Source: a virus
Virus genome (UHGV): UHGV-0113711
DNA length: 34,173 nt
Strand: one strand, 5' to 3'
In this document: positions 5,770 through 7,436 of the stretch, piece by piece
Layout of the letters: every line of letters begins with the position of its first letter
How positions within the stretch are numbered: position 1 is the first letter of the stretch
The notes under the pieces: generated by a model
Seen by the model: only the letters and a program-made list of their open reading frames with translations
The model's database searches: none
Told to the model about the DNA's origin: nothing
Position numbers and translations under genes: made by a program

Positions 5770-5788
5770 CATATATTTTGTTATAATA
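5770..5788 (+). promoter_or_regulatory. Candidate sigma70 promoter with extended -10 (TGtTATAAT)
   Basis: tgttataat at 5779..5787 in the 340-bp AT-rich spacer upstream of the 6027..7222 operon. No convincing -35. By eye only. Confidence 0.3.
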
Positions 5789-6026
5789 TTTTACGACTCA
5801 ACGAAGTCTTGTTAGGATAATGTAAACAAATCCGTTTTTTTAGATGTGAGTAATATTAGCAATGTTCATCTTAGAATGTGATATCGAAGGAAACTCGAAA
5901 ATGATAATAGCTTTACACTATTGAGAAAATTTGGTTGAGGCTTCAAAATAGAGCATTCATACGTGATCAATAGCCAGACTAAGCAAGCAACAGCTAAACC
6001 CCGTAACGTACTGATTAAATTGATAA

Positions 6027-6326
6027 TTGAAGGTGCATATGTTAAAAGTTACTGGTCTTGATAAGCTTCAGAAAGAACTCAAGGATGCAAAGCGTATACT
6101 GAGTGAGCTGGATGGCGAGCTAGGAGTCGTAAAGTTTAACCCTAACGACCCTGCTAGCATCGAGTCGGCAATTCAAACAGTTAATCACATGATTGATGAA
6201 CGCATTGGCGGATGTTCAACCAACTCCATAGTCGGCTCGCTTGCGCAGCAGATGAAGGAAACATACAGAGAAGGCATTCTTAAAAAAGCTGCCGAAGCCA
6301 GATTGACTTCAAGTGAGGATGAGTAA
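6027..6326 (+). CDS. Hypothetical small protein (99 aa), first gene of an operon with the TIR-like protein
   Basis: ORF with GAAGGTG 4 nt upstream. Its stop (TAA 6324..6326) overlaps the ATG of the next gene (6326..6328), indicating translational coupling. No recognisable motif. Confidence 0.7.
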   Translation: MKVHMLKVTGLDKLQKELKDAKRILSELDGELGVVKFNPNDPASIESAIQTVNHMIDERIGGCSTNSIVGSLAQQMKETYREGILKKAAEARLTSSEDE

Positions 6327-7222
6327 TGGCTCAAGATATTTTTTCTGAAATGAACAATGCTGTTCTGGATTTACAGGCTTCACAATACCAGACCTTTGAA
6401 CGTCCACTCAAAAAGCTTGCTCAGCTTCTAAAACATTCCGATCTTGAATCATACAATGCAGACCTGACTGAAGGACTCAATCTTACAGAGTTTCTCGCAG
6501 AAAGTGAGAAGACTGGAGGAAGTATGGCTGGGAGTGCCCAGCTTGTCTGGCCAGATGATGCAAGAAAAACACTAGGCCTTACATTACTTTTGATTTTTAA
6601 GTTAGCAGAAGATCCTAATTATGCAATCAACTTTGGACATCATTTTTTCTATTCCGGAAGTAAAGTTATAGCAGGCATTCATTCGATTACAGGACAACTT
6701 ATCATTCCTTTCGTTAGAGATTACAAAAATTATGTTCAGTCTAAGGGAAGCACAGAAACTATGTTGAAGCCGCAGTTTTCGAACAAAGTTTTCATTGTTC
6801 ATGGTCATGATGATGGCGCCCGTGAAACAGTCGCAAGGTTTCTTGAACGTATAGGTTTAGAAGCAATCATATTACATGAGCAAGCTAATCAGGGACGAAC
6901 TGTCATTGAGAAAGTTATAGCAAATAGTGATGTTGGATTTGCTGTTGTATTGCTAACACCAGATGATGAAGGTTGTGCTAAAGGAGGAATACCAGAACCA
7001 AGGGCAAGGCAGAATGTAATGCTAGAATTAGGATATTTTATCGGGCGTTTAGGCAGAGAGAAAGTATGTGCACTAAAACGCGGCTCACTAGATATTCCAA
7101 GTGATTTTGCTGGGGTTGTTTGGGAAAATATGGATAGCAGTGGAGGCTGGAAGCAAGCACTCGCACGAGAACTTGAAGCTGCTGGTCACAATATTGATTG
7201 GAATAAAGCAATGCGGAGTTGA
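6326..7222 (+). CDS. Two-domain protein: unknown N-terminal domain (~150 aa) plus C-terminal TIR-like nucleotide-binding domain (COG4271/PF10137-type)
   Basis: C-terminal KVFIVHGHDDGARE...AVVLLTPDDEG...RARQNVMLELGYFIGRLGREKVCALKRGSLDIPSDFAGVVW matches the hallmark blocks of the bacterial TIR-like domain (KVFI(S/G)..., (I/V)LLTPDD, R.NV.fELG.fiG.LGr.rv, lPSDlaGv) as recalled from that family. Confidence 0.75.
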   Translation: MAQDIFSEMNNAVLDLQASQYQTFERPLKKLAQLLKHSDLESYNADLTEGLNLTEFLAESEKTGGSMAGSAQLVWPDDARKTLGLTLLLIFKLAEDPNYAINFGHHFFYSGSKVIAGIHSITGQLIIPFVRDYKNYVQSKGSTETMLKPQFSNKVFIVHGHDDGARETVARFLERIGLEAIILHEQANQGRTVIEKVIANSDVGFAVVLLTPDDEGCAKGGIPEPRARQNVMLELGYFIGRLGREKVCALKRGSLDIPSDFAGVVWENMDSSGGWKQALARELEAAGHNIDWNKAMRS

Positions 7223-7274
7223 TTTTATATAGCTCTATTTTTAGCGATACTGGCGTTTCATCGACAATTAAAAA

Positions 7275-7324
7275 TTTGGCTGCTGATTAGCCTAAAACGC
7301 AGCCAAATATAAATCATTAATGAT
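7275..7324. repeat. Inverted repeat (10-bp arms, 14-bp spacer) followed by a 12-bp perfect palindrome
   Basis: atttggctgc (7275..7284) and gcagccaaat (7299..7308) are exact reverse complements. atcattaatgat (7313..7324) is a perfect palindrome. Located in the spacer between the TIR-like operon and the Nu1-like gene. Confidence 0.5.
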
Positions 7325-7405
7325 ATTGCTTAAATAAGTTTTAACGACTCATCTTCTGCCCCCCCTCTAACAAAAAATAATAGTTACTCTGGGACTTCTG
7401 AAACA

Positions 7406-7436
7406 CCGAGATGTTTCGAGCGCTCGGCTTTTTTCT
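7406..7436 (+). terminator. Putative Rho-independent terminator
   Basis: ccgag...ctcgg stem (with the internal palindrome cgagcgctcg) followed by cttttttct. Confidence 0.45.

Follow-up and report, generated by a model that had tools for sequence, protein, structure and literature searches.

A candidate abortive-infection module encoded by a yuaX-family gene and a TIR-domain gene in an Escherichia coli prophage

What is the function of the two overlapping genes that lie between the lysozyme gene and the small-terminase gene of the virus genome UHGV-0113711? The stretch of DNA analysed, here called the window, is 34,173 nucleotides (nt) long and is an Escherichia coli prophage, integrated beside ybiT via a serine recombinase. 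Identity of the region with the chromosomes of two strains, E. coli MS 115-1 and 2021CK-01361, is 100 %, and its G+C content falls from ~52 % to ~37 % at the junction of prophage and chromosome. Both genes are clearly real, judging from the hundreds of conserved homologues of each. On balance it is probable that the pair is a defence module of the abortive-infection type carried as prophage cargo, in which the small protein, a member of the YuaX family, and the N-terminal domain of the large protein (here called Ndom) act as a sensor or regulator controlling a swappable effector, in this case a TIR domain. The original prediction, made from the DNA letters before any database search, had suggested a sensor–effector module, and the pair may indeed be one.

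Domains, partnership and distribution

The large protein, of 298 amino acids (aa), ends in a domain that had been recognised beforehand as the bacterial TIR-like nucleotide-binding domain (PF10137) from the blocks VLLTPDD, RQNVMLELGYFIGRLGREKV and IPSDFAGV, all of which are present in the translation. The profile match agrees (E=4.8e-38; 130.3 bits against a gathering threshold of 24.7; model positions 1–118 of 119), and the domain has the flavodoxin-like TIR fold, the same fold as in Cap12 and PycTIR. Matches among PDB sequences were limited to the Cap12 TIR-STING chains 9lmq and 7un8. In the alignment with these chains, Glu234 (codon 7025–7027, motif RQNVMLELG) corresponds to the Glu of NVVFEFG, and it is nearly invariant across 77 homologues. 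The Glu at this position in TIR-STING is the catalytic residue; Glu234 is therefore a putative catalytic residue, and the enzyme is predicted to destroy nicotinamide adenine dinucleotide (NAD+).

The TIR protein is already catalogued, as the PADLOC candidate PDC-S35, and is annotated, its product being called 'TIR domain-containing protein'. All five PDC-S35 models are matched (E 1e-40 to 1e-71) by the window protein and also by the orthologue from the F plasmid. For the window protein (E~1e-70) the alignment is restricted to residues ~128–295 (model ~93–277), with the N-terminal part of the models unmatched. The whole 298-aa protein is conserved, at 79–88 % identity and the same length, across distant Gamma- and Betaproteobacteria, and YuaX homologues are found on the contigs of these homologues.

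The small protein, of 95 aa, belongs to the YuaX family, which is named after an open reading frame of the F plasmid and already has a Pfam entry (PF27363). This assignment comes from the precomputed Pfam column of a protein database, in which PF27363 is given for the homologues of 98–99 % identity and for all other homologues listed; it has no direct score, as the model is absent from the local Pfam-A copy. Alignment with F-plasmid YuaX is full length, and the gene is labelled YuaX on plasmid pPAPIvir and 'YuaX family protein' in RefSeq. The small partner had been described as unrecognisable, which holds for the local Pfam-A copy but not for the precomputed label. YuaX also has no match in PADLOC, NCBIfam, PHROGs or PDB sequences, and no helix–turn–helix, ribbon–helix–helix or AbrB match in Pfam, NCBIfam or PDB sequences. 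In a structure model of a fused homologue, YuaX is predicted to form three helices followed by an acidic C-terminal tail.

Likewise, the N-terminal ~150 residues of the large protein, also reported as unrecognisable, match no Pfam family, and Ndom shows no similarity to the STING, SAVED or cyclic nucleotide monophosphate (cNMP)-binding folds. Its invariant residues include D15, G69, L73, W75, R131 and D132, within the motifs GSMxGSAxLxWP and PFxRDY. The candidacy of YuaX and Ndom as homotypic adaptor domains of the effector-associated or death-like kind was rejected (hhalign probability 0.3 %).

When species representatives were scanned, a single genome for each species, 50 loci with Ndom were found. 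YuaX adjoins Ndom or is fused to it in 49 of them: it lies directly upstream in 45, four have an in-frame fusion, and in one it is undetected. The pairing is conserved far more strongly than could have been told when the original prediction was made. In every unfused case (45 out of 45), the YuaX stop codon overlaps the next start by 1, 4, 8, 11 or 14 nt, or abuts it. Most of the 120 clusters listed (49–72 % identity) consist of YuaX–Ndom–TIR fusions of ~404 aa, and the named members of the fused clusters are mostly Alphaproteobacteria, including Bradyrhizobium, Bosea, Reyranella and others. Because fusion occurs and the translational coupling is invariant, it is likely that YuaX and Ndom would form a stoichiometric complex. 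The single locus in which YuaX was not detected is in a metagenome-assembled genome of the Hyphomicrobiales (L059, 3974–4897), where a 307-aa Ndom–TIR gene lies between housekeeping genes. The N-terminus of its product is similar to the linker found in fused proteins, and the gene may represent either a fusion that was truncated or a solo variant.

A search of 1.84 billion representative proteins with Ndom only identified 256 relatives, many of which match from ~residue 104, YuaX being fused in frame at the N-terminus. In these relatives Ndom is followed by ~20 C-terminal tails that are unrelated in sequence. The largest group, with 28 representatives, has the PF10137 TIR domain. Other tails are TIR_2 domains (P0254, P0257, P0325 and P0390, of which P0254 also matches the PADLOC spbK model), the HEPN-like Hypoth_Ymh (P0267, which matches PADLOC Aga_HEPN and PD-Lambda-3_B), DUF4145 (P0269), a glycine-zipper membrane tail (P0273), tails common to the PADLOC candidates PDC-M14B, PDC-S05 and PDC-S32 (P0253, P0266, P0317, P0352, P0378 and P0382), and unrecognised domains of ~115 and ~128 aa (9 and 14 representatives, respectively). 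Abortive-infection systems and second-messenger defence systems show this pattern of one fixed front end joined to many interchangeable toxic back ends. It is YuaX with Ndom, not YuaX with TIR, that is conserved as a unit, therefore YuaX tracks the regulatory domain and no particular toxin.

The pair is found on several kinds of mobile element. A full-length orthologous pair (46 % and 51 % identity for the small and large proteins) is present on the F plasmid (pF, CP076044.1 40325–44869), convergent with and directly adjoining pifA/pifC, and the same arrangement is seen on Klebsiella IncF virulence/resistance plasmids (L063, pPAPIvir). Classical genetics reportedly placed a 'pifB' locus next to pifA, and this locus may correspond to the YuaX/TIR pair. 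Plasmid records with YuaX number 993 and those with Ndom 933, mostly of Klebsiella and E. coli IncF types. Among 5,426 complete E. coli genomes, the F-type pair is present in 317, mostly on plasmids, and the window's variant in seven, always in this prophage. In Pseudomonas aeruginosa the pair is cargo of an integrative and conjugative element (ICE) or plasmid, once next to a TIR–caspase–TIR cluster; Tn7-like cargo of Bradyrhizobium includes the fused form; and in Vibrio the pair is in variable islands with parDE. In plasmid and island contexts ccdAB, vapBC or parDE is often nearby. On mobile elements the pair thus has other defence genes for neighbours, in keeping with the defence-cargo setting that had been proposed for it.

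Additional genes accompany the pair in some lineages. In Vibrio (L007–L009), a gene of 61–74 aa and one of 182 aa, without Pfam matches, are just upstream of the pair in three contexts (6650–6835 and 7028–7576), and in P. aeruginosa (L004 and L064) an HTH_3 regulator gene is found at this upstream position; such genes may regulate the pair in a lineage-specific way. In Bradyrhizobium-type metagenome contigs (L010–L012), a conserved 321-aa gene without a Pfam match (9219–10184) starts 4 nt after the fused YuaX–Ndom–TIR gene. To either side of the fused gene there is a gene pair for a PNP_UDP_1 protein of ~595 aa and a protein of 482 aa, the locus lying inside Tn7-like (TnsB/TniB/TniQ) cargo. 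The 321-aa gene and the flanking pairs may also serve in defence, or may provide the fused form with an additional component. In E. coli PSS-15 (NZ_AP027709.1 ~3350586–3354323), an IS2 is annotated within the matched stretch (hits H33 and H73). The alignment of the pair there is in one piece only as far as nt 776 of its 1184, a further match lies at another place in that record, and the TIR gene may be interrupted by the IS2.

Proposed action, known systems and alternatives

In the mechanism proposed here, YuaX and Ndom would be produced in fixed proportion via translational coupling and would together be the sensor or regulatory unit. In the uninfected cell, this unit would keep the C-terminal TIR inactive and non-oligomerised. 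On infection a cue, which is most likely the binding of a phage protein to YuaX/Ndom, would let the TIR domains assemble, activation through oligomerisation being suggested by analogy with TIR-STING, TIR-SAVED and SpbK. The assembled TIRs would hydrolyse NAD+, halting the infected cell and phage replication, and the depletion of NAD+ could in this way give protection against phage.

Parts of this mechanism have counterparts in known systems. Cap12 (TIR-STING and TIR-SAVED) of the cyclic-oligonucleotide-based anti-phage signalling systems (CBASS) and PycTIR have the same PF10137 subfamily, Glu motif and fold as the window protein, and by analogy the expected chemistry would be NAD+ hydrolysis on oligomerisation. 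However, the operon of the pair includes no cyclase gene, domains of the STING, SAVED or cNMP-binding kind are absent, and the TIR follows a novel helical domain, at its C-terminal side, and would depend on a separate or fused YuaX. The protein was rejected as a Cap12 or PycTIR orthologue or orphan effector, based on scores of 36 and 31 bits for the NCBIfam Cap12 equivalogs against a cut-off of 450 and on the lack of a linked cyclase. Membership of a full CBASS or Pycsar system was likewise not supported, the PADLOC PycTIR and CBASS effector models matching the TIR core only.

SpbK, from ICEBs1 of Bacillus subtilis, has a helical N-terminal domain that binds the phage portal protein and clusters the TIRs, activating their NAD+ hydrolysis (PMC12847820). 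As a single-protein TIR abortive-infection system, it resembles the pair in architecture and, by analogy, may do so in mechanism. There is, however, no detectable homology, SpbK has no partner protein, its N-terminal domain is 94 aa rather than ~145 aa, and its TIR is not PF10137. The PADLOC spbK model has no match to the window protein at E<=0.01 and matches only the TIR_2 tail of the distant relative P0254, which does not support membership of the SpbK family.

Thoeris (ThsB TIR with a ThsA-type effector) is likewise a two-gene TIR operon in defence islands, but its TIRs are signal producers of other TIR clades that act with a separate effector, whereas the pair has an effector-clade TIR and, as partner, a 95-aa helical protein without an effector-like domain. 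ThsB_TIR was unmatched, TIR_2 was below its cut-off, and the partner has no effector or ligand-binding domain, so the pair was not assigned to Thoeris. PDC-S35 is a computational, single-gene candidate for which no experimental validation was found in literature searches, and YuaX matches no PADLOC model. In fused toxin–antitoxin sensors of the CapRel(SJ46) type, an antitoxin-like part, separate or fused, doubles as phage sensor. The likeness to the pair is in logic only, folds and chemistry being unrelated (tRNA pyrophosphorylation versus predicted NAD+ hydrolysis).

Several observations weigh against a sensor-controlled abortive-infection module. Literature searches found no study of YuaX, PDC-S35 or the pair, and no experimental data on the family. 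The model of the fused homologue has a predicted template modelling score (pTM) of 0.50, which is too low to fix how the domains are placed relative to one another and so to establish autoinhibition. Ndom is absent from all 50,697 sequenced phage genomes, making the prophage location atypical for the family; a DNA search of phage genomes gave solely a 202-nt weak match. Finally, a small upstream gene overlapping the gene for a toxic enzyme also fits a toxin–antitoxin pair.

This last point raises the alternative that the pair is a type II toxin–antitoxin or addiction module. YuaX would then be a labile antitoxin for the TIR protein, the main role of the pair would be to stabilise the plasmid, ICE or prophage, and defence would be a possible side effect when a phage shuts down host expression. 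The layout is that of such modules, both in the window (TAATG) and in the 45 unfused loci, and the abundance of YuaX and Ndom in the plasmid records and the frequent proximity to ccdAB, vapBC or parDE would suit addiction. The IS2 near or within the PSS-15 pair, only two thirds of which aligns in one piece, would fit a costly gene. Even so, this alternative is unlikely: in-frame fusions of YuaX, Ndom and effector are common and ancient, which is hard to square with an antitoxin that is degraded faster than its toxin, YuaX has no detectable DNA-binding domain for autoregulation, and it follows the regulatory domain rather than one toxin.

A role outside defence is improbable, whether as NAD+ or ADP-ribose signalling that acts on the life cycle of the element (lysis–lysogeny, conjugation or entry exclusion) or as an inactive TIR scaffold. 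It would accord with the location of the pair, which in the prophage has lysis genes on one side and packaging genes on the other, and with the suggestion, by the authors of the BASEL phage collection, that pifA of the F plasmid may have primary functions other than immunity (PMC8594841). However, the surroundings of the pair, which has been found in a prophage, plasmids, an ICE, a transposon and chromosomal islands, have no other gene in common, therefore a role tied to one element is unlikely. Effector swapping (HEPN-like, membrane and other TIR) is a hallmark of toxic-effector systems, and the putative catalytic Glu is retained.

Least probable is an orphan second-messenger effector, with Ndom (and YuaX) as receptor of a nucleotide signal from a cyclase encoded elsewhere or by the phage; although to our knowledge every characterised PF10137 TIR is a ligand-activated CBASS or Pycsar effector, and the invariant glycine-rich and polar motifs of Ndom could line a pocket, no cyclase or cGAS/DncV-like nucleotidyltransferase (CD-NTase) gene is conserved beside the pair in any context examined, the Cap12 equivalog scores are far below the cut-off, and Ndom is unlike the STING, SAVED and cNMP-binding folds.

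Gene layout and prophage neighbourhood

The features of the pair and its neighbours are listed in Table 1. The overlap of stop and start codons in TAATG (6324–6328), reported in the original prediction, was confirmed, with TAA at 6324–6326 and ATG at 6326–6328. The GAGGA Shine–Dalgarno sequence of the large gene (6315–6319) is inside the end of the small gene, six bases before the ATG.

Table 1. Positions of the YuaX/TIR gene pair, its parts and neighbouring genes in the window.
Feature	Position	Strand	Remarks
Serine recombinase gene	1515–3020		
Phage lysozyme gene	5201–5686		Upstream of the pair
Leader	5687–6038	+	Untranslated, AT-rich, ~32 % G+C; between the lysozyme gene and the small gene
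Sigma-70 promoter-like site (candidate)	5748–5777	+	TTAACA-18-TATATT, 10/12 matches
Small yuaX-family gene	6039–6326 (from TTG: 6027–6326)	+	95 aa
Coupling junction	6315–6328	+	GAGGA Shine–Dalgarno sequence, yuaX TAA, TIR-gene ATG
Large TIR gene	6326–7222	+	298 aa
Ndom	6326–6760	+	Residues 1–145 of the 298-aa protein; all-helical bundle, no Pfam family
CAP12/Pycsar-type TIR domain	6785–7135	+	Residues 154–270
C-terminal tail	7136–7222	+	Conserved, GGWKxxLxxELxxAGxxIDWN and stop codon; common to the PADLOC PDC-S35 models
Small-terminase gene	7533–8081		Downstream of the pair
Retron Ec67-type reverse transcriptase (RT)-Toprim gene	8588–10357	−	PADLOC RT-Toprim_I-C E=7e-216; NCBIfam retron_Ec67_fus E=5e-213

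A small protein of 99 aa, starting at TTG 6027, had been predicted, but this is not borne out. The homologues are 94–96 aa and align from the Met encoded at 6039, and RefSeq annotates a 95-aa product, therefore ATG 6039, which is preceded by AAGG at 6030–6033, is probably, indeed almost certainly, the true start. The AT-rich leader described previously was found. It has no + strand open reading frame of >=40 aa and no match in Rfam at E<=1, so no RNA element was recognised and one was rejected as an explanation of the leader. The sigma-70-like site within it is a candidate only for the operon promoter, promoter-like sites in the region being no more numerous than in shuffled sequence. A terminator had also been predicted, near 7405–7436, and is unsupported: a + strand scan calls none, and the fold is on a par with shuffled sequence (z = -0.74).

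The description of the locus as integrase-proximal is fair, given the position of the serine recombinase gene. The retron RT-Toprim gene is 1.4 kb beyond the pair. A perfect 11-nt inverted repeat (10374–10384 and 10492–10502) is just upstream of the RT-Toprim start and could be the a1/a2 arms around msr–msd; an Rfam search of this region gave no match.

In a related prophage, in E. coli 2017.06.05CC (L065), the pair is 100 % identical and the flanks are 92–98 % identical. When positions 7200–13600 of the window are compared with this relative, homology decays within the small-terminase gene and is gone after ~8100, and three unrelated + strand genes are in place of the window's retron. Both sides of the small-terminase gene thus look like exchangeable cargo, and the gap between the small- and large-terminase genes (8.1–13.6 kb) looks like a cargo hotspot.

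Two tail-like genes, on the − strand at 3945–5293 (DUF2163/phrog_2048, and a distal tail protein, phrog_1302), adjoin the integrase end and are oriented opposite to the main structural module, which occupies the + strand of the window from ~13.6 kb onwards to its end. Such an arrangement is odd.

Significance for the family

In the literature searched, no description could be found of the obligate partnership with YuaX, of Ndom with its effector swapping, or of the presence of the pair on F beside pifA. Current defence-finder models detect the TIR gene only and overlook its obligate partner. It is tentatively proposed, with the chances judged a little short of even, that YuaX with Ndom is an unrecognised, widespread infection-sensing cassette that is plugged into ~20 suicide effectors, including TIR enzymes that would degrade NAD+, HEPN-like ribonucleases, membrane disruptors and others.

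If this is true, there would be consequences for work with the F plasmid, which is used in many laboratory strains and carries the pair. The member beside pifA, together with relatives on hundreds of clinical IncF plasmids of Klebsiella and E. coli, could explain phage exclusion that is not due to PifA. Phage collections from F-carrying hosts would also have been pre-filtered against the pair. For example, the host used to isolate the BASEL phage collection had an F plasmid from which pifA alone had been deleted (PMC8594841), therefore the F pair would still have been present in that host. Since the family is common in medically relevant replicons, it may also affect host range in phage therapy.

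The cassette would, if the proposal holds, define a new multi-effector family of abortive-infection systems. It would offer a compact new switch, made of a 95-aa protein and a 145-aa domain. As the switch exists in nature both fused and split, and with many outputs, its trigger and its regulatory logic are open to direct tests.

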